From: a virus
IMG/VR virus record: IMGVR_UViG_3300033149_003715
Span: 80,174 to 144,173 of that record
Length of the DNA stretch: 64,000 bases
Strand: one strand, 5' to 3'
Both the position numbers and the translations under genes were made by a program. Below, one piece after another: positions 41,131 to 64,000 of this stretch (positions within the stretch are counted from its first letter, which is position 1; each line of letters opens with the position of its first letter). The notes under the pieces were generated by a model. The model was not told where the DNA came from, searched no databases, and saw nothing but the letters and a program-made list of their open reading frames with translations.

Positions 41131-42546
41131 TTACTGTAGACTTCTTTGTCTGATTGTATCGAATTTTTGAGTGACTAATAATCGTCCATTACGATATACC
41201 TCCACTAATTTATTTATGTGCTGGGGTAGATAGTCATAATTTACTGTCTTAAAACATTTTTCGTCGTCCGCATAAATAAGCCTCAATCGTCCCTTTTTTG
41301 ATTGTTTATTTTTGTCTTTAGGTCGTTTAGATATATCATGCCATGTATTACATCTTTTTTGTGCTGAACATTTGAAGGCGAAAGCTTGGGTGTCTCTGTT
41401 AATTTTTTGTAGTAATCCGCCACCCATACCAAATACTAGGCTTTCTACTGAGAATTTGTTTTCTACAACGATTTTACATATTTCTGTGATAGTATTTACA
41501 CTCAAACCATCTCCCCATAACACACCTACAACTGGATTTATTACAGTATACCCTTTGGAATTAACATGATATCCAAACGTATTTGCCAATTGTTTTAATA
41601 TCCAGACTATTTGCTTACCTGGATGTTTGTGTTGTTGTGTTATACTATCTGGTCTAATAACCACTTTAGCTATACCAGATTTGTTTGCTTTTCTGTTAAT
41701 TATTTGCTGTTTGAATTTGGGTATAATGTTTTCCACAAAGTTATAAATATCATACGAATCCGCGACTATACTTAGAATTCCATTCGGGTATTTTTGGAGC
41801 AATTCGTTAACTAACGTTACTTCTCCTTGATGATCGTATGATGTCATTATTGAGTGTTCGGTTGCGGGGACACTAAAACCTAATGTTTTTGGATCAGCTT
41901 GGTAATATTCTATACCTTCTAATAGGGCTGGAACTGTATCGGTTCCTTTGAAATTAATTAAGTGTGCTAATCCACCTAAACTTGCAGATTCATTAGAGCT
42001 TACACCACGATAACCAAAATCGTGAAGCATAAAATCTAAACACTGTGTTTGTTCTGACGATATATTAAGATATTCAGCCAGTGTTCTTTTAGTGTAATAA
42101 CTAATAGTAGCTACAGTTGATGGATACCATACATGTGTTAGCAAAGATTCCACAAAATTAGTTAACCAATAACATTTTGGATCTGTATTTTCCACTGTCA
42201 TCATTACATTATTAATATCAACTGGCGTACCTTCTGGCACTGCCTTGATTGATAGTGGTAAATACCCATTGTGCTTTTTAACTATATGCAACCAGCCATC
42301 TTCGTTGAATAAATTTTGTCCAAAATGATTTTGGATAATTGTTTTGGCCACTGTAATTTTTTCTCGCGTGACTCTCCTTCCTACCATATTTTTAAGTAAA
42401 ATAGATTGTAAACCAAAAAAAACAGTTTTTGGATATTTTGCCCATTTTCTACATTCTAAGTAGGAATAAATTGTCCGTGTGTTTTTTGGGTACATTTTGT
42501 AATGAGCAAATTTGTAACTATCCGATAATAAACAGATATTATCCAT
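41131..42546 (-). CDS. nicotinamide phosphoribosyltransferase-like enzyme (NAMPT/NadV or Namat-like)
   Basis: DSYK..H..MYP, FFGLQ, AVPEGT, WYPSTVAT, LHDFGYRG, GTDT, SVPATEHS, SIVADSYD, VIRPDSI, WGDG, FGMGGGLLQ..NRD. Confidence 0.93.
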   Translation of the reverse strand: MDNICLLSDSYKFAHYKMYPKNTRTIYSYLECRKWAKYPKTVFFGLQSILLKNMVGRRVTREKITVAKTIIQNHFGQNLFNEDGWLHIVKKHNGYLPLSIKAVPEGTPVDINNVMMTVENTDPKCYWLTNFVESLLTHVWYPSTVATISYYTKRTLAEYLNISSEQTQCLDFMLHDFGYRGVSSNESASLGGLAHLINFKGTDTVPALLEGIEYYQADPKTLGFSVPATEHSIMTSYDHQGEVTLVNELLQKYPNGILSIVADSYDIYNFVENIIPKFKQQIINRKANKSGIAKVVIRPDSITQQHKHPGKQIVWILKQLANTFGYHVNSKGYTVINPVVGVLWGDGLSVNTITEICKIVVENKFSVESLVFGMGGGLLQKINRDTQAFAFKCSAQKRCNTWHDISKRPKDKNKQSKKGRLRLIYADDEKCFKTVNYDYLPQHINKLVEVYRNGRLLVTQKFDTIRQRSLQ

Positions 42547-43494: not shown

Positions 43495-44379
43495 TTACTT
43501 CTGTGTAAGTTGTTGTGTTAATTTTTGGAAATATTTTTTAAATATAATTGCCGTTTGACGATTTATTTCTTTTTCTACAGGCTTAGACCAAGCAATTTCA
43601 CCTCTTGCTTCTCGTTTAATGTCTTCGCACATACTGATTAGAATTTCCCTCATATTTTCAATACTTGGCGGCTGCTGGTTTTTTGAATGAATTTTATCTA
43701 AAACGTGTTTTAATCTGTTTATTGTGACCCATTCTGTTGCTATATCTTGAGCTTGTTTAAGAACTTCTAATTTTTTAGGATCTTTAATTTGCCGTTTCTT
43801 TTTTGTTTCTCGGAAGTCGTCATTTTTATACTTTGCAATTACTCGTTCATTATTATTTTTCCTTAATTCAATAAGAGGGCGAATAACAATTCCTTCTCGG
43901 GTTTGATTGTGGTTACCTGCCCATTCTGCTACAACAGATGGTTTATCTCGTTCTTCTGTAAGAATATCTAAATCAGTAGAACATTTTATATATGGGACAA
44001 ATGTAAGCCCACATCTTTTTACTATTTTTTCGGCTGTAGGAACATCTAACCAGCAATCACCTATTTTTACATCAAAGGCAATAAATTTTAGGTTACTACC
44101 ATACTTTTTTGATTGACCTTGTACTTTTCCACCATATCCTTCGCCGTAGATTATAATATCATCTACTTTAGGTAAATTAGCTAAAATTTCTTCTTGGTTG
44201 AATAAATTGGTGAAGTTTTCGTGTTTAATACAGCCAGAGAAAAATGATAACTGTGGTTGTCTTGTTACTTTATACTTTATATGTGTGCTTGTACCATCCA
44301 CCTTCTCCAGAGCGTACACTTCCTTAAATAGTAAAACTTCTTGAGCTTTATATAAATTATTTATATGTAAGTAACCCAT
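43495..44379 (-). CDS. ATP-dependent RNA ligase (Rnl2-like)
   Basis: Motif I EKVDGT, YGEGYG, FIAFDV, REGIVIRP, IAKYK; start at MGYLH. Confidence 0.85.
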   Translation of the reverse strand: MGYLHINNLYKAQEVLLFKEVYALEKVDGTSTHIKYKVTRQPQLSFFSGCIKHENFTNLFNQEEILANLPKVDDIIIYGEGYGGKVQGQSKKYGSNLKFIAFDVKIGDCWLDVPTAEKIVKRCGLTFVPYIKCSTDLDILTEERDKPSVVAEWAGNHNQTREGIVIRPLIELRKNNNERVIAKYKNDDFRETKKKRQIKDPKKLEVLKQAQDIATEWVTINRLKHVLDKIHSKNQQPPSIENMREILISMCEDIKREARGEIAWSKPVEKEINRQTAIIFKKYFQKLTQQLTQK

Positions 44380-44555
44380 TACTGTTTCCTCAAAAGACTT
44401 TTTGGAAATTTCCAATAATACTCACATTTTTTGGTTGATTTGTCATATGGTGGTGCAATAAAATATGATTGGTATTTACTTGGTTTAATTAAATATCGAA
44501 GACAACTTTCTTTGTGTGGACAATCTTTTCCATAACACATGGTAATATCAGGCAT
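44379..44555 (-). CDS. small Cys-rich phage protein
   Basis: Hand translation MPDITMCYGKDCPHKESCLRY...CEYYW (58 aa). Confidence 0.7.
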   Translation of the reverse strand: MPDITMCYGKDCPHKESCLRYLIKPSKYQSYFIAPPYDKSTKKCEYYWKFPKSLLRKQ

Positions 44556-45664: not shown

Positions 45665-46147
45665 TTAGTTTACATTTTGTAGACGATTCATAGCAGATGT
45701 TAGATCACCTTGGAGTAATTCCCAGCCTGTTGTACCTATTGCATTAACGGGTCTATCCATGTAAAAACCAAATAGACTTTCAACAAACTGTGCTTTTTGT
45801 TTTACTTCTTTTAACAATTTTTTGTAATTTGAACCACGTTTTGTAATGACTGGTACAGAAATACCATAAGCATACAATGCGTAAACCAATTGTTTATCAT
45901 CTATGATTGTTTTAAATCCACAACAATTTTTAGCTGCTTCAATGTTTTCTTTTCTGGCTTGTTCCGGACTAACCACAGATAAAGTTACTAGATATTGTGG
46001 CTGATCTTCATCAACCGCATCCCACCAATTGATGAGTTCTAGCATAAAATAGTAATTGAATTCGCCATTGTTTAGTTTTTGAGAAATCCATGTACCGCCG
46101 TATTGTCGGTAGTTTACGTCGCCTGATAACCAAAAAAATCTAATCAT
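45665..46147 (-). CDS. family C paralog (WISQKL.NGEFNYYF)
   Basis: Homologous to 53999, 54429 and 54937. Confidence 0.8.
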   Translation of the reverse strand: MIRFFWLSGDVNYRQYGGTWISQKLNNGEFNYYFMLELINWWDAVDEDQPQYLVTLSVVSPEQARKENIEAAKNCCGFKTIIDDKQLVYALYAYGISVPVITKRGSNYKKLLKEVKQKAQFVESLFGFYMDRPVNAIGTTGWELLQGDLTSAMNRLQNVN

Positions 46148-46281
46148 AATTAACCTTTCTGTGTGACAATTAGAATGAAAAAACTACACCAACACAAAAG
46201 AAGTACAATTAGAAAAAACCACCCGGGTAGTTTAGTTCTAACATACTTGCGACTAATAAAGTTTTTTATTTTCATTTGATC

Positions 46282-53998: not shown

Positions 53999-54439
53999 CT
54001 AAGAGAAGGAATAGATATCACACAATATGTCTCCTTTTAGAAATTTCCAGTTAATTGTGTAAGATTTTATGGATTTTGCTATTTCTTGTGCTTTTTGTTT
54101 AATTGTTTTTAGTAAGTTTTTGCGATTTGTTCCTTTTATTGTCGTAATTGATAATGAAATGCCGTTAAGGTCTAATGTGTCAGCTAGTGTTTCTTCATTC
54201 AACTTTGTATTCAATAAGTATTTTTTTACTATTTTAAGGTTACATTCTTTTAATCGTTCTGGGCTGGATATACATAGACTGGCTAAATATTTTAGCGGTT
54301 TTTCAAAGTTTTCTTCTTCAAGAATTTCTATTATGAAATAGTAACCGAATTTTCCATCGGTCAGTTTTTGAGAAATCCACCTATTTTCATGTTCGCTTTG
54401 ATAGGATTGTTTAGGCAGTGAAGAAAATTTAATTGCCAT
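53999..54439 (-). CDS. family C paralog
   Basis: RWISQKL...YYF; start at MAIKF. Confidence 0.75.
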   Translation of the reverse strand: MAIKFSSLPKQSYQSEHENRWISQKLTDGKFGYYFIIEILEEENFEKPLKYLASLCISSPERLKECNLKIVKKYLLNTKLNEETLADTLDLNGISLSITTIKGTNRKNLLKTIKQKAQEIAKSIKSYTINWKFLKGDILCDIYSFS

Positions 54440-54899
54440 TGTTGATCTCTCCATAAATATCACACAATGTTTTACCATTTAACAGATCCCAACCAGTTAC
54501 ATCAATGCCGTCTATAATTTGGTTCATATAATAATTGACAGATTTAATCACGTCAGGAATTTTTTGTTTAACTATTTCTAGTAATTTTTGGCGATTTGAT
54601 CCATATTTAAAAATAATTTGTAGATCAATATTTGCAAGATATAATCTGTCGGCCAGTTTGATTTCATTTAGTAATATGTCTTTGCCCCATACCTTTTGAA
54701 CTATATCAAGATTGTGTTTTTTAATTTGATCTGGACTCACTATAGACAAGCTAACTACATATCCTGGGGTATATTCTAAGCTGGTGGTTTCTAGTATGAA
54801 GTAATAATTGAATTCCCCGTTGGTGAATTTTTGGGAAATCCATCTACCGTCGCCTTTATTTCGATACATCTTATCCGGTATTTGTGAAAATGTGATCAT
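54429..54899 (-). CDS. family C paralog
   Basis: GRWISQK...YYF...TGWDLL. Confidence 0.8.
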   Translation of the reverse strand: MITFSQIPDKMYRNKGDGRWISQKFTNGEFNYYFILETTSLEYTPGYVVSLSIVSPDQIKKHNLDIVQKVWGKDILLNEIKLADRLYLANIDLQIIFKYGSNRQKLLEIVKQKIPDVIKSVNYYMNQIIDGIDVTGWDLLNGKTLCDIYGEINNGN

Positions 54900-54936
54900 A
54901 ATTTTAGTGGATTCTTTTTAAGAATTTCTATTAGTG

Positions 54937-55389
54937 TTAATCTTCATAATTGTTACATATTGTTTTACCACCTAATAAATCCCAGCCGGTTATACTTCGA
55001 CCTTCTACAATTTTGTTCATGTAATGGTTGATTGCAGTTGCATCGGGAATGTTTTGTTTGGCTGTTTCCAGCAATTTTTGATGATCTGTGCCATATTCAA
55101 TAAACACTGGAACATAAACGCCGACTAAATATAGTGCATCAGCTAGCTTGATTTCATCTAATAATATGTCTTTACCCCAGATATTTTCTACTGCACTAAA
55201 GGTGCATTTTTTTAATTGATTTGGGCTAACTATAGATAAGCTGACCATATATTCTGGCGTATATCCCAAGCTTACAATTTCTAGCATGAGATAATACTCA
55301 AACTTCTCATGGACTAATTTTTGAGAAATCCATCTGCCGTTATTTTCGTTTTGATATATATCATCTGGTATTTGTGAAAATGTAACCAT
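54937..55389 (-). CDS. family C paralog
   Basis: GRWISQK...TGWDLL. Confidence 0.8.
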   Translation of the reverse strand: MVTFSQIPDDIYQNENNGRWISQKLVHEKFEYYLMLEIVSLGYTPEYMVSLSIVSPNQLKKCTFSAVENIWGKDILLDEIKLADALYLVGVYVPVFIEYGTDHQKLLETAKQNIPDATAINHYMNKIVEGRSITGWDLLGGKTICNNYED

Positions 55390-55410: not shown

Positions 55411-55498
55411 TTAGGTAGTTTTCCCAATATTATCGTAAAATGCCGCTCCTGTTACCAAGTTTAGGGCCATTTGCCAAAGTGCCCGCCTGTTTCGTTTT
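55411..55498 (-). pseudogene. 3' remnant of a nucleotidyltransferase paralog
   Basis: NRRALWQMALNL matches NKRELWQMALNL of 61901..62350. Confidence 0.6.
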
Positions 55499-57225: not shown

Positions 57226-57515
57226 TTTTTATCCTTTTGTTCTGGAACTAATTACATAAGAGAAAAAACTGTGTTGTGTTGACTAAACTATTCCCGGCAG
57301 GTATATTTTTATTGAAATAACAATTATTAATGCGTTTTTTGACTTTGGAACTAATTTAGGTATCAAACTACCTATTTTCCTTTTGAGAATAATTTTTGCC
57401 CTTAAAAATATTAACGACAAGATTCTAGGGCATATTTACAGGGTGATTGTGACCTATTTTGGTCGTGTGTGAGTTCACCGGATTAGTTTAGCTACTATTT
57501 TCCGGTGATTTTGCC

Positions 57516-57956
57516 CTAAGAGATGTTTTCAGGGCAAGGAGAGAAGATTTTGCAGACTTCAATTAGAAGTTTCCAGATCTTTTTCATTACAGATTTGTCC
57601 CCTAACGGGACTAGATCTGGATATAAGTCTGCCACTTCACGCAATCTTTTTTGAATTGCGTTTTTTAATTTCGCATCTTTGACAACTTGAACATGAATAT
57701 CTGTATCTTTATGTATATATACAGTAGCTATTAGTGGATCTGTTCTATATGTAGAACCAGATGTTTCTACAAATCCCAATTTTTTCAAAAACTCGTGTGT
57801 ATTGGAACAATCTTGAGTAAAAAAGTCCCAATCCGATCTTTCGCCATATGTACCAAAGAATCTGCTGCCAGTTAGGTAAAATTCTATTGGACTACTTTCC
57901 AATTTATTGATAACTTCCATCGTTTGCGGTTTTCTTGAATTGATGATCGTCATCAC
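57516..57956 (-). CDS. minimal Pol-beta-type nucleotidyltransferase
   Basis: FYLTGSRFFG....SDWDFF. Confidence 0.8.
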   Translation of the reverse strand: MMTIINSRKPQTMEVINKLESSPIEFYLTGSRFFGTYGERSDWDFFTQDCSNTHEFLKKLGFVETSGSTYRTDPLIATVYIHKDTDIHVQVVKDAKLKNAIQKRLREVADLYPDLVPLGDKSVMKKIWKLLIEVCKIFSPCPENIS

Positions 57957-58099
57957 TTCTCCTTTTTAATTAAGGTTGTCGGCAGATATATTTTGTTAAA
58001 ATAACAATATTTGTGACCTGAGGGAATTCACCGGATTAGTTTAGTTACTATTTTCCGGTGATTTTGCCCTAGAAGAGTTGGGTGGGCAAGAGTGGCACA

Positions 58100-58519
58100 T
58101 TAAGGCCAATTTTGACAGAATTTTATTAAGAGTTTCCAGATCTTTGACATTTCACGCTTGTTCTTTAATGGAACTAGATCTGGATCTAAATCTGCCACAT
58201 AACGCAATCTTTCTTGGACTGCGTTTTTTAATTCTACATCTTTGACGATTTGAACGTGAATATTTGCTTCTGTGTGCATGTATATAGTGTCTATTAGTGG
58301 GTCTGTTTCATATGTAGAATCGGATGTTTTCACAAATCCTATATTTTTCAAAAAGTTGCGTGCATCGAGAGAATCTAATGTAAAGAAATCCCAATCTGAA
58401 TTTTCATCGTGTGTGCTAAAAAATCTACTTCCAGTCAAATAAAACTTTATTGGACTGTTTTCGAGTTTTCTAATGATTTCCAATATTTGTGGCATTTTTG
58501 AATTAGCAATTACCATCAC
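58100..58519 (-). CDS. minimal nucleotidyltransferase paralog
   Basis: FYLTGSRFF....SDWDFF. Confidence 0.8.
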   Translation of the reverse strand: MMVIANSKMPQILEIIRKLENSPIKFYLTGSRFFSTHDENSDWDFFTLDSLDARNFLKNIGFVKTSDSTYETDPLIDTIYMHTEANIHVQIVKDVELKNAVQERLRYVADLDPDLVPLKNKREMSKIWKLLIKFCQNWP

Positions 58520-58561
58520 TTGTCCTTTCTTAATTTGGACTATTCCACTGGGTTAGTTTAG

Positions 58562-58960
58562 TTAGTATGTTTTGATTTTTTCGAGCAATTTTACAGATTT
58601 GACGGCGATTGTGCCGGGAGGAATTTCTTTATTTTTCCAGTTGTAGCGAAGTGGGCGTTTGTGTTGTGCTTTTCTTTTAGCGATTTCTTTTAATCTATCA
58701 ATATTTCCCGTGAAAGGAATTTTTAGGAATCTACCCTTGGTGTGGACTTTATAAATATGAACTGAACAATAATTATGTTTTTCTAAAAATTTGCAAGCAT
58801 CATCAAATGTTTTGAATACAAATAGTGGAGTATATGGTATTCTAGGATATACCCACTCATTTTCTTTGTATTGAATTGCTGCTTCATGCATAGTTCCAAA
58901 TATCTGACGAATACACAAAGAATACATATCTTTTGTTACAATTTTGTAGTAAATTTTCAT
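58562..58960 (-). CDS. family A paralog
   Basis: Shared motif set. Confidence 0.8.
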   Translation of the reverse strand: MKIYYKIVTKDMYSLCIRQIFGTMHEAAIQYKENEWVYPRIPYTPLFVFKTFDDACKFLEKHNYCSVHIYKVHTKGRFLKIPFTGNIDRLKEIAKRKAQHKRPLRYNWKNKEIPPGTIAVKSVKLLEKIKTY

Positions 58961-59035
58961 TGCGTGGGTTCCTAATTTGTGGTTTTAGTAAAAAACATCG
59001 TGTGTGCAAATTGGGCAATCTTTCGTCGGGTTAGT

Positions 59036-59470
59036 TTAGTCAATGTGTTTTGATTTTCGGTCAAATAACCTAATGCAAACGTCCCACATTTTTTTTGTTT
59101 TTGTTTTGCCGTCGAGAAATGTGAATTTTGGATATATTTTCTTTAAGTACAATAGTCTTTTTTGGAGGTAAATTTTGATGTCAACAGTTGTCAATAGTTG
59201 CACGTAAATATTGCCCGCTTGATGTACAAATACCGATTTTACAAATGGATCATCATAGTAAGGTAATATGGATGTTTTCTTGAATCTTAAAGATTTCAAA
59301 AATTGACATGTTTCCGGAGTGTATTTTGCAAACAAATCCCATCGAGGTGAATGATGAGTGTTATCGAAAAACTTTTCACCTATCAGGTAGAATTTTATGT
59401 AACAATTTGTTAACTGCTCAAGAAGATAATCAGATATTAGGTTTGTGGTGTTGGTACCCAAAATAAGCAT
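59036..59470 (-). CDS. nucleotidyltransferase paralog with degenerate active site
   Basis: FYLIGEKFF...PRWDLF: GS and the first Asp are lost. Confidence 0.7.
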   Translation of the reverse strand: MLILGTNTTNLISDYLLEQLTNCYIKFYLIGEKFFDNTHHSPRWDLFAKYTPETCQFLKSLRFKKTSILPYYDDPFVKSVFVHQAGNIYVQLLTTVDIKIYLQKRLLYLKKIYPKFTFLDGKTKTKKMWDVCIRLFDRKSKHID

Positions 59471-59508
59471 CGTAAATCCTTTTTTGAATTAGAATGATGA
59501 AATGTTAC

Positions 59509-59775
59509 TTACTTGGTGGATCCAGTTACTATTTCGTAGATTTTTTTGCACAAATTATGCGTAATGCCATCGGCAAAGAGTTTCAGTAGTGCAATTGTCT
59601 CCCTTTTGCTGTATCCCTCGATTTTGGGATATTCGCCGTTTTCGATGCTGTACATTAGACTTTTTGTTAAAGCATCTATTTTTTTTGTTACAATTGTATC
59701 GGATGGGATTTGAATGGCAAGTTCTTCCAGCAAATTGTGGAATATTTTCGTGCAATCTTTTGGGTTTTCTTGCAT
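59509..59775 (-). CDS. hypothetical protein
   Basis: 88-aa ORF with AAGGA RBS. Confidence 0.6.
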   Translation of the reverse strand: MQENPKDCTKIFHNLLEELAIQIPSDTIVTKKIDALTKSLMYSIENGEYPKIEGYSKRETIALLKLFADGITHNLCKKIYEIVTGSTK

Positions 59776-59882
59776 GATTTGTTCCTTTTTGGTTTAGTAA
59801 ACCCTTTTGAGTAATTTGATCGAAAAAATAAAAACGGCGTTTGCAGAAATCCTTTTTGAACTAAAGAATTTTTTGTTATGAT

Positions 59883-60299
59883 TTACGTTATTTTTTGCAT
59901 ATAGAAAAACAGATTTGTCATCGCTTTCCAGACTAGATGTCTATAACATTTGGGAAGATATGTCCAAAAATTTGGATGCTTTTTTGTTGTTTCCAACAGG
60001 CTATTTTGAATATGTTCTTTTATGCGTGCGTTTTTGACACATTGCACGTGAATATTTGCTTGCTTGTGTGCATAAACTATGTTTGTTAACATATCAAAGT
60101 AGTGGTATTTGTTTTCTTCAACAAATCCCCAATTTTCTAGCACTTTTCTAATTTGTGGTGAATCTTCTACGAAGAAATCCCAATCCGAATTTTCGTGGTG
60201 TGTACCGAAGAACCTACTTCCAGTCAGGAAAAACTTGAAGTTGCTGTTTTCCATTTCCGTAATGGTGTAAACAGTTGAATTTACCTTACAAATGATCAT
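59883..60299 (-). CDS. minimal nucleotidyltransferase paralog
   Basis: FFLTGSRFFG...SDWDFF. Confidence 0.8.
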   Translation of the reverse strand: MIICKVNSTVYTITEMENSNFKFFLTGSRFFGTHHENSDWDFFVEDSPQIRKVLENWGFVEENKYHYFDMLTNIVYAHKQANIHVQCVKNARIKEHIQNSLLETTKKHPNFWTYLPKCYRHLVWKAMTNLFFYMQKIT

Positions 60300-60351
60300 G
60301 ATTCACTCCATTTTAGTTTGGGGTTGAACAAACAAACATAGACTATGCAAA

Positions 60352-60425
60352 TGAGAACGGTGGGATTTGAACCCACGATCTTCGGATTAAAAGTCCGATG
60401 CTTTACCAGACTAAGCTACGTTCCC
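60352..60425 (-). tRNA. tRNA-Lys(UUU), copy 1
   Basis: GGGAACG acceptor, TCGGA-CTTTTAA-TCCGA, GTTCAAATC. Confidence 0.95.
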
Positions 60426-60578
60426 ATTTCCTTATAAAACACACCAGGGTAGTTTAGTTAATTCACACCAATTTTGGTTGAATTTCCTAAACACCCTGGG
60501 CTTTGTTATCTAATCCCACCAGACTTCTCTGAAGTGGGATTGTTTGTTTTTTCCTCTTGGGTTACGTTCTTGCTGTTT

Positions 60579-60995
60579 TTATATGCTTCCTCGCATATAG
60601 TAAGCAAATTCTATCATTGTTTGCCAAAGTTCATATTCCCGTTTTTTGGAAATGTTTTTGAAGAAGGATGGGTGTTTTTTGCTTGTTACTAGTAAGCTGT
60701 TTTGAACATGTTCTTTTACGTGTATATCCTTGACACATTGCACGTGTACGTTGGCACTTTGATGTACGTACACTTTGCTCGTTAACCCATCGGAATATGA
60801 GTTTTTCTCTTCAGTGAAGCCTAAATTTTCAAGTTCTTTTCTGACTTCCGGACAATCCGCTACGTAAAAATCCCAGTCGGAATTCACCGTGTACGTGCCG
60901 AAAAATCTGCTTCCGGTTAGGTAGTAGTTTGCTTGACTTTGTGCCATCTTGTTGAAGATGCTTTCAAACGAGTTTTCCGGGCTGATCAATGTCAT
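60579..60995 (-). CDS. minimal nucleotidyltransferase paralog
   Basis: YYLTGSRFFG...SDWDFY. Confidence 0.8.
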   Translation of the reverse strand: MTLISPENSFESIFNKMAQSQANYYLTGSRFFGTYTVNSDWDFYVADCPEVRKELENLGFTEEKNSYSDGLTSKVYVHQSANVHVQCVKDIHVKEHVQNSLLVTSKKHPSFFKNISKKREYELWQTMIEFAYYMRGSI

Positions 60996-61047
60996 GATCT
61001 ACTCCTCTTTAGTTAGGGACTGAACGAGTAAACACAAACTATACAAA

Positions 61048-61121
61048 TGAGAACGGTGGGATTTGAACCCACGATCTTCGGATTAAAAGTCCGATGCTTT
61101 ACCAGACTAAGCTACGTTCTC
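61048..61121 (-). tRNA. tRNA-Lys(UUU), copy 2
   Basis: Identical to copy 1 except acceptor position 2 (GAGAACG). Confidence 0.95.
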
Positions 61122-61144
61122 TGTGAAGTGGAATTGTTTGTTTT

Positions 61145-61558
61145 TTATATTTCTTGTACTTGCATAATTAGGTTTACAAGTGTTTGCCACAACCATTTTT
61201 TTCGGCTTTTGCTTGCATTTTTCAAGAAACTGGGAATTTCATTGCTTAATTCTGCTATGCAATCTTGAATTACTGTTTTTGCCCAAACATTTTTGACGCA
61301 TTGCACATGTATTCTAGCACTTTGATGTACGTATACTTTGTTTGTTAAATCATCGGAGTATGAATTCTGTTCTTCAACGAAACCCAGATTTTCAAGTTCT
61401 TTTCTAACTTCTGGACAATCTTCTGTGAAGAAATCCCAATCTGAATTTTCATTGTGTGTGCCGAAAAATCTACTTCCCGTGAGATAGAATTCTTGGTTGC
61501 TGTTTTCCATTTCGGGGAAAACGTTCGTAATTAGCCTTTTCGGGTTGATCAATGTCAT
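61145..61558 (-). CDS. minimal nucleotidyltransferase paralog
   Basis: FYLTGSRFFG...SDWDFF. Confidence 0.8.
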   Translation of the reverse strand: MTLINPKRLITNVFPEMENSNQEFYLTGSRFFGTHNENSDWDFFTEDCPEVRKELENLGFVEEQNSYSDDLTNKVYVHQSARIHVQCVKNVWAKTVIQDCIAELSNEIPSFLKNASKSRKKWLWQTLVNLIMQVQEI

Positions 61559-61571
61559 GATCTACTCCTCT

Positions 61572-61838
61572 TTAGTTAGGGACTGAACGAGTAAACACCG
61601 ATTTGTTTGTGTGTGTACGAACACAACGTTTCTGCCCACAAATCTTGAAAAATCTGTGGTCAAAACAATAAACCCCGGCAATTTTTGTACCGTTGTTTTT
61701 ATGTTTTGTTTTGTTTTCAAAAAAGAGTTGGGCAGATTCTACGGAAAAGTTGTTGGGAGTGTTGAAGATAATGAAGTAAGGTTCTCTAGTTTGGAGAACA
61801 TACTGGGCGACGATTTTTTCTGCTTTTTGAATTGTCAC
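61572..61838 (-). CDS. hypothetical protein
   Basis: 88-aa ORF, GTG start. Confidence 0.5.
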   Translation of the reverse strand: MTIQKAEKIVAQYVLQTREPYFIIFNTPNNFSVESAQLFFENKTKHKNNGTKIAGVYCFDHRFFKICGQKRCVRTHTNKSVFTRSVPN

Positions 61839-61900
61839 TGGTTAAATCCTGTAAATTTTCGATTTTTTCCAAATATTGGAATAATCCTCCCAAGAAGAAT

Positions 61901-62350
61901 TTAGCCCAAGTTATCACCCATTGATTCCCAATATTTTGTGTCATGTATTAGATTCAAAGCCATTTGCCAAAGTTCTCGTTTGTTTTGTTTAGACAAGTAG
62001 TTTAGCATACCAGTTTTTTTGTTGAGTTCGAGCAAATTGTCTTTGATGAGCGTTTTTGCACCAACATTGTTCACACATTGGATATGCACATCGGCTTCTT
62101 TGTGTACGTACACTTGATTTGTTAGTGAGTCCAACAAATAAGCTGGACTGTTTTCGAGAACAAATCCCCAACTTTCAAGTTCTTTTCTGACTTCTGGACA
62201 ATCTTCCGTGTAAAAATCCCAATCAGAATCTTTTGTGTGGGTATCGAAAAACCTGCTTCCGGTAAGATAAAAGTTTTTGTTGCTGTTGTTCATTTGATCG
62301 AAAATATGATTGATTGTATCACAGGTTTTATGCATGTCAATCAATGTCAT
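61901..62350 (-). CDS. minimal nucleotidyltransferase paralog
   Basis: FYLTGSRFFD...SDWDFY. Confidence 0.8.
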   Translation of the reverse strand: MTLIDMHKTCDTINHIFDQMNNSNKNFYLTGSRFFDTHTKDSDWDFYTEDCPEVRKELESWGFVLENSPAYLLDSLTNQVYVHKEADVHIQCVNNVGAKTLIKDNLLELNKKTGMLNYLSKQNKRELWQMALNLIHDTKYWESMGDNLG

Positions 62351-62657: not shown

Positions 62658-62686
62658 AAAAAACCCCCCCGAATAACCGGGGGGGT
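62658..62686 (-). terminator. rho-independent terminator
   Basis: ACCCCCCCG-GTTATT-CGGGGGGGT followed by a T run, just after the 62706..63242 stop. Confidence 0.85.
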
Positions 62687-63814: not shown

Positions 63815-64000
63815 ATGGGGGAATAAATGGTATCTATGGTTCTAGTAAAATCGGGGAATGAGGGAGGATCTGTGGCTTTAGTAAAGTTGGGGGGATGAAG
63901 GGGGATCTGCGGCCCTGGTGAAATTGGGGGGATGAAGGGGGATCTGCGGCCCTGGTGAAATTGGGGGGATGAAGGGGGATCTGCGGCCCTGGTGAAATTG
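63815..64000 (+). repeat. G-rich 37-bp tandem repeat, runs off window
   Basis: Unit GGGGGGATGAAGGGGGATCTGCGGCCCTGGTGAAATT; three perfect copies from 63889 plus two degenerate copies to the left. Confidence 0.93.

Follow-up and report, generated by a model that had tools for sequence, protein, structure and literature searches.

The stretch of viral DNA analysed here (64,000 nt, referred to as the window) corresponds to bases 80174-144173 of the 144,173-bp IMG/VR record IMGVR_UViG_3300033149_003715 and carries, on the minus strand between 57516 and 62350, an array of seven genes for minimal nucleotidyltransferases (NTases) of the Pol-beta type, interleaved with two tRNA-Lys(UUU) genes. The array appears to be a lineage-specific tandem expansion of a phage-only NTase family, in which six copies would be active as judged by their residues, one dead and one reduced to a relic. 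It is read, tentatively and at slightly less than an even chance, as a diversified battery of NTases directed at translation. Among the records examined, the seven-fold array was found in this phage only, the NTase being single-copy in each of five other viral records. The literature searched contained no description of the family, its restriction to viruses, its tRNA neighbourhood, the fusions to ribosomal protein L7/L12 described below or the seven-fold array. The fold and the chemistry belong to a known type.

The NTase array and its duplicated tRNA unit

A six-frame search of the whole genome with the copy at 61145 as query returned exactly seven NTase copies (E 8e-94 to 2e-14; 29-58% identity), all of them intact open reading frames (ORFs) of 137-149 amino acids (aa) on the minus strand and all preceded by good ribosome-binding sites (RBSs). 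Search and alignment together confirmed the initial annotation, which had counted seven paralogs of about 140 aa with one degenerate member. In the direction of transcription the array begins with paralog 7 (61901..62350, 149 aa, with the motifs GSRFF...SDWD...IHIQ), and continues with paralog 6 (61145..61558, 137 aa, the copy used for modelling), paralog 5 (60579..60995, 138 aa), paralog 4 (59883..60299, 138 aa), paralog 3 (59036..59470, 144 aa), paralog 2 (58100..58519, 138-139 aa) and paralog 1 (57516..57956, 145-146 aa), the last of the array. In paralogs 1 and 2 translation more likely begins at the ATG one codon downstream of the GTG, which is also the start used in the database entries P0002 (145 aa) and P0003 (138 aa).

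The signature LTGSRFF...SDWDF...IHVQ, with the spacing G-S-x10-D-x-D, is present in six of the seven copies. Paralog 3 reads IGEKFF...PRWDL and IYVQ instead (S29 to E, D40 to R, H84 to Y); because its frame is open and the non-catalytic family residues Q86, K94, Q98, K117 and W124 are retained, it looks, from its residues, like a catalytically dead but maintained copy. The remnant of an eighth copy suspected at the outset is real: 25 codons at 55423..55497 (minus strand) match residues 121-145 of the 61901 copy, i.e. its C terminus, with 48% identity (E 1e-4).

Both tRNA-Lys(UUU) genes lie on the minus strand (copy 1, 61048..61121; copy 2, 60352..60425) and were found with ARAGORN and with Rfam RF00005 (81.6 and 79.5 bits, respectively). 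Neither encodes CCA, and they are identical except at position 2 (A2-U71 versus G2-U71), with a canonical CUUUUAA anticodon loop free of any escape change. When the two units of leader, NTase, spacer and tRNA (563-696 bp; repeat families D12 and D13) were aligned, they matched end to end: the first 53 nt, comprising leader, RBS and first codons, are identical, the coding sequences have diverged and the tRNAs are nearly identical, with some 110 nt extra between the upstream NTase gene and the tRNA in copy 2 relative to copy 1. This alignment demonstrates that leader, NTase and tRNA-Lys(UUU) were duplicated as one unit, which bears out the suggestion that tRNA and NTase had been copied together. 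The segment with leader, RBS and first codons of paralog 5 (60974..61035, minus strand) is 97% identical to that of paralog 6 (61537-61598) despite a synonymous divergence (dS) of about 1.1 in the adjoining coding sequence; no convincing RNA structure was detected in the leaders upstream of paralogs 4-6 (z +0.3 to -2.4).

The duplications are old, since dS between paralogs ranges from 0.86 to saturation, and the two parts of the protein have fared differently. Between paralogs 5 and 6 the N-terminal half shows a nonsynonymous divergence (dN) of 0.21 and a dS of 1.31 (dN/dS about 0.16; 69% aa identity), versus a dN of 0.75 and a dS of 0.81 in the C-terminal part (dN/dS about 0.9; 31% aa identity), and dN/dS in the catalytic half of the paralogs amounts to about 0.16-0.2. 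The catalytic half is under purifying selection and the C-terminal 45 residues change almost neutrally.

A motif, CTAAACTAAYCCRGTG, occurs six times on the minus strand (0.2 expected), at 57476-57508, 58029-58061, 58546-58561, 59024-59039, 60442-60457 and 46220-46235. At its sites past paralogs 1 and 2 the motif supplies the loop and 3' arm of a hairpin, CACCGGA...TCCGGTG, which is stable (z -5.5 and -4.4) and lacks a T-run. Processing, stabilisation or protein binding may take place there.

Family, fold and possible connections to translation in relatives

Searches with the family returned 913 clusters at 90% identity and 1,591 representatives at 50% identity (E<=1e-3), 977 of which fell below E 1e-10; nearly all members are 125-165 aa long, and the corresponding ESM Atlas clusters are 93-100% viral. 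A scan of prokaryotes with one narrow peptide pattern gave a single locus in 185,579 species genomes, and when 50,697 records of cultured phages were searched by tblastn with three family members, the outcome was either nothing or a single match confined to the motif (Ruegeria phage RpAliso tRNA nucleotidyltransferase, E 7e-3); a search at the DNA level found tRNA-Lys matches only. One member (NCBI GCA_964436165.1, 152-kb contig) lies at a contig end beside genes of cellular type (for an amino-acid permease, MgtC and Lon) and a hydroxymethyl-dUMP kinase-like gene; the contig may derive from a cell or from a very large phage.

Cut-offs of curated families (Pfam, PHROG, NCBIfam) were reached by no member. 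Against Pfam NTP_transf_2 (PF01909) six copies scored 15.2-18.9 bits, below the 21-bit gathering cut-off, with no match for the degenerate copy; the sole NCBIfam match was MntA (NF047752; 13-16 bits versus a cut-off of 60, in the generic motif region only); PHROGs gave nothing below E 0.01, and PADLOC gave AbiEii alone, for one copy only (E 0.019, 12 bits). The only match in a sequence search of the PDB was the Aphanizomenon minimal nucleotidyltransferase (MNT) antitoxin 7ae2_B, over LxGSRxxG...SDWDF (E 0.024).

In an alignment of 119 family sequences G28 and D42 are invariant, W124 is conserved at 100%, S29, D40 and Q86 at 99%, K94 and Q98 at 97%, and D69, ahead of strand b3, at 87%. The Pol-beta motif hG[GS]...[DE]h[DE]h, with its second element 9-13 residues after the first, is present as G28-S29...D40-W-D42 in six of the seven copies. 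At position 84, which lies in strand b4 (I-H-V-Q), 85 of the 119 members (71%) have His, 25 (21%) Asp and 6 Gln; the residue there is probably the third metal ligand, and the earlier remark that the IHVQ strand has His in place of the third acidic residue holds.

An AlphaFold2 model of paralog 6, computed with the 119 sequences (pLDDT 92.6, pTM 0.84), has the order a-b-a-b-a-b-b followed by three C-terminal helices, the elements being a1, b1 (25-27), G28-S29, a2, b2 (41-46, with D40 and D42), a3, b3 (72-78) and b4 (83-88, IHVQCV). The predicted structure is thus a minimal Pol-beta NTase core with a helical hairpin. The top matches listed by Foldseek in the PDB were NTases, with probabilities of 0.9-0.99 but E values of 0.01 or higher. 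Whole-domain matches obtained with VIA-align, weak in absolute terms (Z 5-6.7), included Cid1, TUT7, an archaeal CCA enzyme, GrpB, MenT1 and ANT(2''); such matches were nearly all Pol-beta NTases, TUT4, class II CCA enzymes, GLD-2 and cGAS among them. No MNT antitoxin was among the best 50 structural matches, which does not exclude a relationship. A search of BFVD was headed by small phage proteins that are uncharacterised or labelled "nucleotidyltransferase".

The array proteins resemble several known systems in part. With the MntA/MNT antitoxins of type VII HepT-MntA pairs (7ae2, NF047752) they share the stand-alone minimal Pol-beta form of about 140 aa and, almost letter for letter, GSRxxG...SDWDF; a role as protein AMPylators is plausible. 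Unlike MntA, however, the phage family is viral rather than cellular, has no HEPN or HepT companion in this genome, scores far below the profile cut-off, mostly has His as its putative third metal ligand and carries a family-specific C-terminal helical hairpin. The initial description as stand-alone minimal NTases stands with respect to fold and stand-alone form; in the features tested, the family departs from MntA, RlaP and CCA-adding enzymes in all but the generic GS...DxD motif. Its statement that no HEPN partner is visible was borne out, as neither PF05168 nor PF01934 gave a match in the whole genome at E<=1 and the neighbouring ORFs gave none to HEPN or HepT. RlaP (PF10127; cited in PMC7824862), an RNA-ligase-associated Pol-beta NTase of phage RNA repair, is believed to act on damaged tRNA. 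The present phage likewise has an Rnl2-like RNA ligase, but the array proteins are about half the size of RlaP, the ligase gene is some 13 kb away rather than adjacent, and PF10127 itself had no match in the genome at E<=1.

MenT1 and MenT3 (AbiEii, DUF1814) are also small NTases, the MenT enzymes acting on tRNA acceptor ends, and MenT1 gave weak whole-domain matches (Z 5.0-5.5); the phage proteins are nevertheless early gene products with no antitoxin-like partner recognised, in contrast to a cellular toxin-antitoxin pair, and the AbiEii match of one copy has only 12 bits. The best structural matches of the catalytic core were to Cid1, TUT7, TUT4 and CCA-adding enzymes (Z 5.8-6.7 over 109-121 residues), which differ in being 300-600 aa long and in having additional RNA-binding domains; no CCA-adding enzyme or poly(A) polymerase (PF01743) was found in the genome, and the array proteins have just 137-149 aa.

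The surroundings of the NTase genes in relatives were collected by pattern scans of viral and metagenomic contigs, which yielded 68 loci representing 54 distinct clusters; most of the tRNA-free loci are contigs of 1-3 kb. tRNA genes occur in 15 of the 54 clusters (29 tRNAs in 247 kb, every one on the NTase strand). Twelve lie within 1 kb of an NTase and six within 150 bp (Ile-UAU, Lys-UUU twice, Leu-UAA, Met and Glu), compared with 2.1 expected within 150 bp by random placement inside the tRNA-bearing loci (p about 0.01; Fisher p 0.03). Flanking genes are unrelated, and no ORF other than the NTase is widely common to the loci; since the family tree is star-like and long-branched, with tRNA-linked members dispersed across it, the linkage was not inherited as one block. 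One complete 170-kb relative (GC 32%) has four tRNAs, of which Leu-UAA, Ile-UAU and Lys-UUU lie 0.5-4.4 kb from its NTase; a complete 126-kb relative has no tRNA, and a linear 43-kb relative (about 89% complete) has a single distant one. Conservation in related phages had been proposed as a check on the NTase-tRNA linkage, and the outcome was positive: the linkage recurs in unrelated relatives, with tRNAs of several identities and not specifically with tRNA-Lys. It is real at a scale of a few kilobases, modest at immediate adjacency and not specific for lysine.

A second connection, not considered in the initial annotation, was found in four family members, each less than 50% identical to the others, which carry a C-terminal extension matching the first helices of the ribosomal L7/L12 C-terminal domain (motif KIxAIKxVRExTGLGLKEAKDxVE). 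Three exceed the cut-off of 25.9 bits (P0127, 38.4; P0193, 32.2; P0119, 30.9), and P0027, at 20.6 bits, is below it; the fused genes are located at L085:1603-2277, L086:1534-2154, L084:8001-8798 and L011:10001-10711. These helices form the surface of L7/L12 that binds and recruits EF-Tu, EF-G, IF2 and RF3, and the fusions suggest, on the basis of sequence, that translation factors are involved. In two fusion-bearing phage contigs a tRNA-Lys(UUU) gene follows 1.3-1.6 kb downstream. One of these phages also encodes a full CCA-adding enzyme, which argues that the small NTase is no replacement for such an enzyme. On L011 a separate L7/L12-like ORF of 126 aa was observed two genes downstream of the fusion. 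A search for longer fused forms gave two proteins only, and the extra parts of eleven other long members contain no Pfam domain of their own.

Proposed function and alternative explanations

From these data we infer catalysis, an acceptor and a benefit to the phage as follows. The conserved N-terminal half would bind NTP and metal through G28-S29, D40-x-D42 and H/D84, and the fast-diverging C-terminal helical hairpin would select the acceptor. Since relatives often adjoin phage tRNA genes or carry an L7/L12 fusion, the acceptor would be a component of the host translation apparatus, either a protein or the 3' end of a tRNA. A protein acceptor might be a translational GTPase or a tRNA-directed host nuclease, AMPylated in the manner of MntA and DrrA; a tRNA would be tailed at its 3' end as by the MenT enzymes. 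The paralogs would then constitute a battery of specificities, with the dead copy serving as a binder or regulator. Size and motif of the MNT type, the L7/L12 fusions and the precedent of DrrA tip the balance slightly towards a protein, and gene linkage, MenT1 and the TUTase/CCA-like core speak for the tRNA 3' end; the weight given to translation-directed NTases is divided almost evenly between the two. The AMPylation domain of DrrA/SidM is an NTase-fold enzyme that AMPylates a GTPase, and by analogy it may be regarded as a precedent for an NTase joined to an L7/L12 factor-binding module, although DrrA (mentioned in PMC3710099) is an effector aimed at eukaryotes, its domain is larger and GlnE-like, and the likeness is drawn from fold and activity.

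In a more far-reaching form of this proposal, phage-only NTases would modify the host translation apparatus early in infection, with the seven-member battery physically coupled to its own tRNA supply and with a translational GTPase captured via an L7/L12-like adaptor, tRNA 3' ends or tRNA-directed nucleases as targets. Taken as a whole this form is on the unlikely side; if true, the enzymes would form a new class serving phage takeover or counter-defence. Current views assign phage tRNA genes two roles, meeting codon demand and countering defences that cut tRNA, and an abundant unnamed family (about 1,600 clusters at 50% identity) that travels with these tRNAs and in some members is fused to the ribosomal module recruiting EF-Tu and EF-G would be a new player at that interface. 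The proteins are small and easily expressed, and the paralogs offer natural specificity variants.

Several observations weigh against NTases directed at translation. Catalytic competence is not certain, because the canonical third carboxylate is usually His, and the structural Z scores, all below 8, do not discriminate RNA-tailing from protein- or small-molecule-modifying NTases in the predicted model. At fine scale, adjacency to tRNAs in the tRNA-bearing loci exceeds chance only modestly (Fisher p 0.03), and about 70% of the loci show no tRNA, many of these being contigs of only 1-3 kb. A control scan with a 128-aa family that is also expanded in this genome found no relatives in viral contigs and so provided no matched control family; NTases and tRNAs could be linked simply because both reside in the early accessory regions of large AT-rich phages. 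The tRNA set of this phage is what codon usage by itself would lead one to expect, and expansion of the NTases says little on its own, given that further families are expanded in the genome as well (the 128-aa one to 21 copies). Moreover, no L7/L12-like sequence was found in this phage, and the fusions number four among about 1,600 clusters.

As a special case of translation-directed NTases, the enzymes might imitate MNT antitoxins and AMPylate host HEPN RNases (HepT-like tRNA 3'-end cutters and PrrC/RloC anticodon nucleases), thereby keeping tRNAs intact; several paralogs would cover several toxins, and the co-duplicated tRNA-Lys would replace the cut tRNA. The length of 137-149 aa, the stand-alone form and the sole matches in PDB sequences (7ae2_B) and NCBIfam (MntA) are as expected for such mimics, as are the early position of the genes and the presence of other candidate counter-defence or repair genes in the phage (NAMPT and the Rnl2-like RNA ligase). 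The reports that anti-defence genes occur beside phage tRNAs (PMC10799925) and that PrrC and RloC are HEPN nucleases acting on tRNA-Lys (PMC3710099) were counted in its favour. The MntA score, however, is far from its cut-off and covers the generic motif only, MNTs are missing from the 50 best structural matches (not exclusive evidence), the family is viral and not cellular, the linked tRNAs have many identities, and the L7/L12 fusions are left unexplained. The earlier proposal that tRNA-Lys replaces a cleaved tRNA also lost ground: the phage uses AAA more than any other codon (62 per 1000), so tRNA-Lys is expected with no need of an anti-nuclease role, codon supply explains it at least as well, and the anticodon loop shows no escape change. 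Mimicry of this kind is accordingly considered improbable. A further variant, in which the NTases poison host tRNA-Lys and the phage tRNA escapes, was rejected, as the phage tRNA would serve host mRNAs equally.

The neighbourhood of NTases and tRNAs may instead be coincidental, with both merely residing in the part of large AT-rich phage genomes that holds early accessory genes; the tRNAs would then meet codon demand, and the NTases would act on something else, such as small anti-phage molecules (compare ANT(2'') and Lnu, whose substrates are antibiotics), nucleotides used in signalling, or the ends of DNA or RNA. The tRNAs identified with ARAGORN (two Lys-UUU, Leu-UAA and Thr-UGU) read heavily used A-ending codons (AAA as above, TTA 46 and ACA 28 per 1000), and the same set of tRNAs for AT-rich codons recurs in relatives; the small proteins matched in structure over the whole domain include ANT(2'') and GrpB (Z 5.1-5.8), and the region is prone to paralog expansion. 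Six immediate tRNA adjacencies in unrelated contexts nevertheless exceed the expectation within loci, three of the four tRNAs of the 170-kb relative lie within 4.4 kb of its NTase, and if the enzyme had nothing to do with translation, three independent L7/L12 fusions above the threshold would be difficult to account for; coincidence is judged doubtful. It is very improbable that the copies lack function or are decaying in a region prone to duplication: one dead copy, one relic and relics of a neighbouring family in the same stretch would fit, but six copies keep all family-invariant residues despite saturated dS, dN/dS in the catalytic half is low, and the frames are all intact with good RBSs.

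Genome setting and neighbouring features

The two ends of the record share 87 identical bases, most simply explained as an assembly overlap of a circular or permuted genome. The guanine-plus-cytosine (GC) content is about 30%, and genes are oriented on the plus strand over 0-46 kb and on the minus strand over 46-144 kb. Among the products of the minus-strand block are DnaB, a Pol III alpha that is split and contains an intein, and a class II ribonucleotide reductase that contains one too; inteins with a LAGLIDADG homing endonuclease are located in the C-terminal half of Pol III alpha (genome 57409-60156, minus strand; L014:17409-20000) and in the ribonucleotide reductase (genome 74013-77327, minus strand; L015:14013-17327). 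The best cultured-phage match of Pol III alpha has 31% identity, so no cultured phage is close, and a 718-aa plus-strand protein, presumed to be structural, had no match.

A strong intrinsic terminator on the minus strand (62663..62686; 10-bp stem with 8 GC pairs and a T-run) closes the upstream unit, and the array opens a new one about 300 bp past it, beyond a non-coding gap and at the far upstream end of the minus-strand block. The array is therefore probably transcribed among the first genes of this early block, in agreement with its initial assignment to the early region. A near-consensus sequence resembling a promoter of the extended -10 type (TTGACA, 16 nt, TG-n-TACAAT; 11 of 12 positions match) is located at 62313-62340 (minus strand) within the first codons of paralog 7 and may be a chance occurrence or an internal promoter. 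At the very end of the assembly (window 63847-63994) at least three tandem G-rich repeats of 37 bp were observed, with 43% GC versus 30% elsewhere; these may mark an origin or packaging region.

Two further genes, of kinds implicated in phage counter-defence or repair, lie on the minus strand 13-16 kb from the array: an Rnl2-type RNA ligase (43495-44415; PF09414, E 6e-16; about 13 kb away) and nicotinamide phosphoribosyltransferase (NAMPT; 41131-42546). An RtcB gene was not found in the genome.

Within the array, two minus-strand ORFs of 88 aa were called, one between paralogs 7 and 6 (61572..61838, GTG start), an uncertain gene with no homolog among 57 related loci, and one with a good RBS (59509..59775). 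The 128-aa family ('MKIYYKVV...P.GT...VKLL'), whose 21 copies or relics include those at window 29731-59916 (minus strand), resembles DUF7666 phage proteins by Atlas structure; one copy, identified by homology and not HEPN, lies inside the array (58562..58960, minus strand), together with a relic of the 3' end of another (59794..59893, minus strand; repeat family D6, 74%). A family of about 150 aa ('FSQIPD...GRWISQK') that matches no database family is present in four copies (window 45707-46147 and 54008-55389, minus strand), three of them in tandem immediately downstream of the NTase relic.

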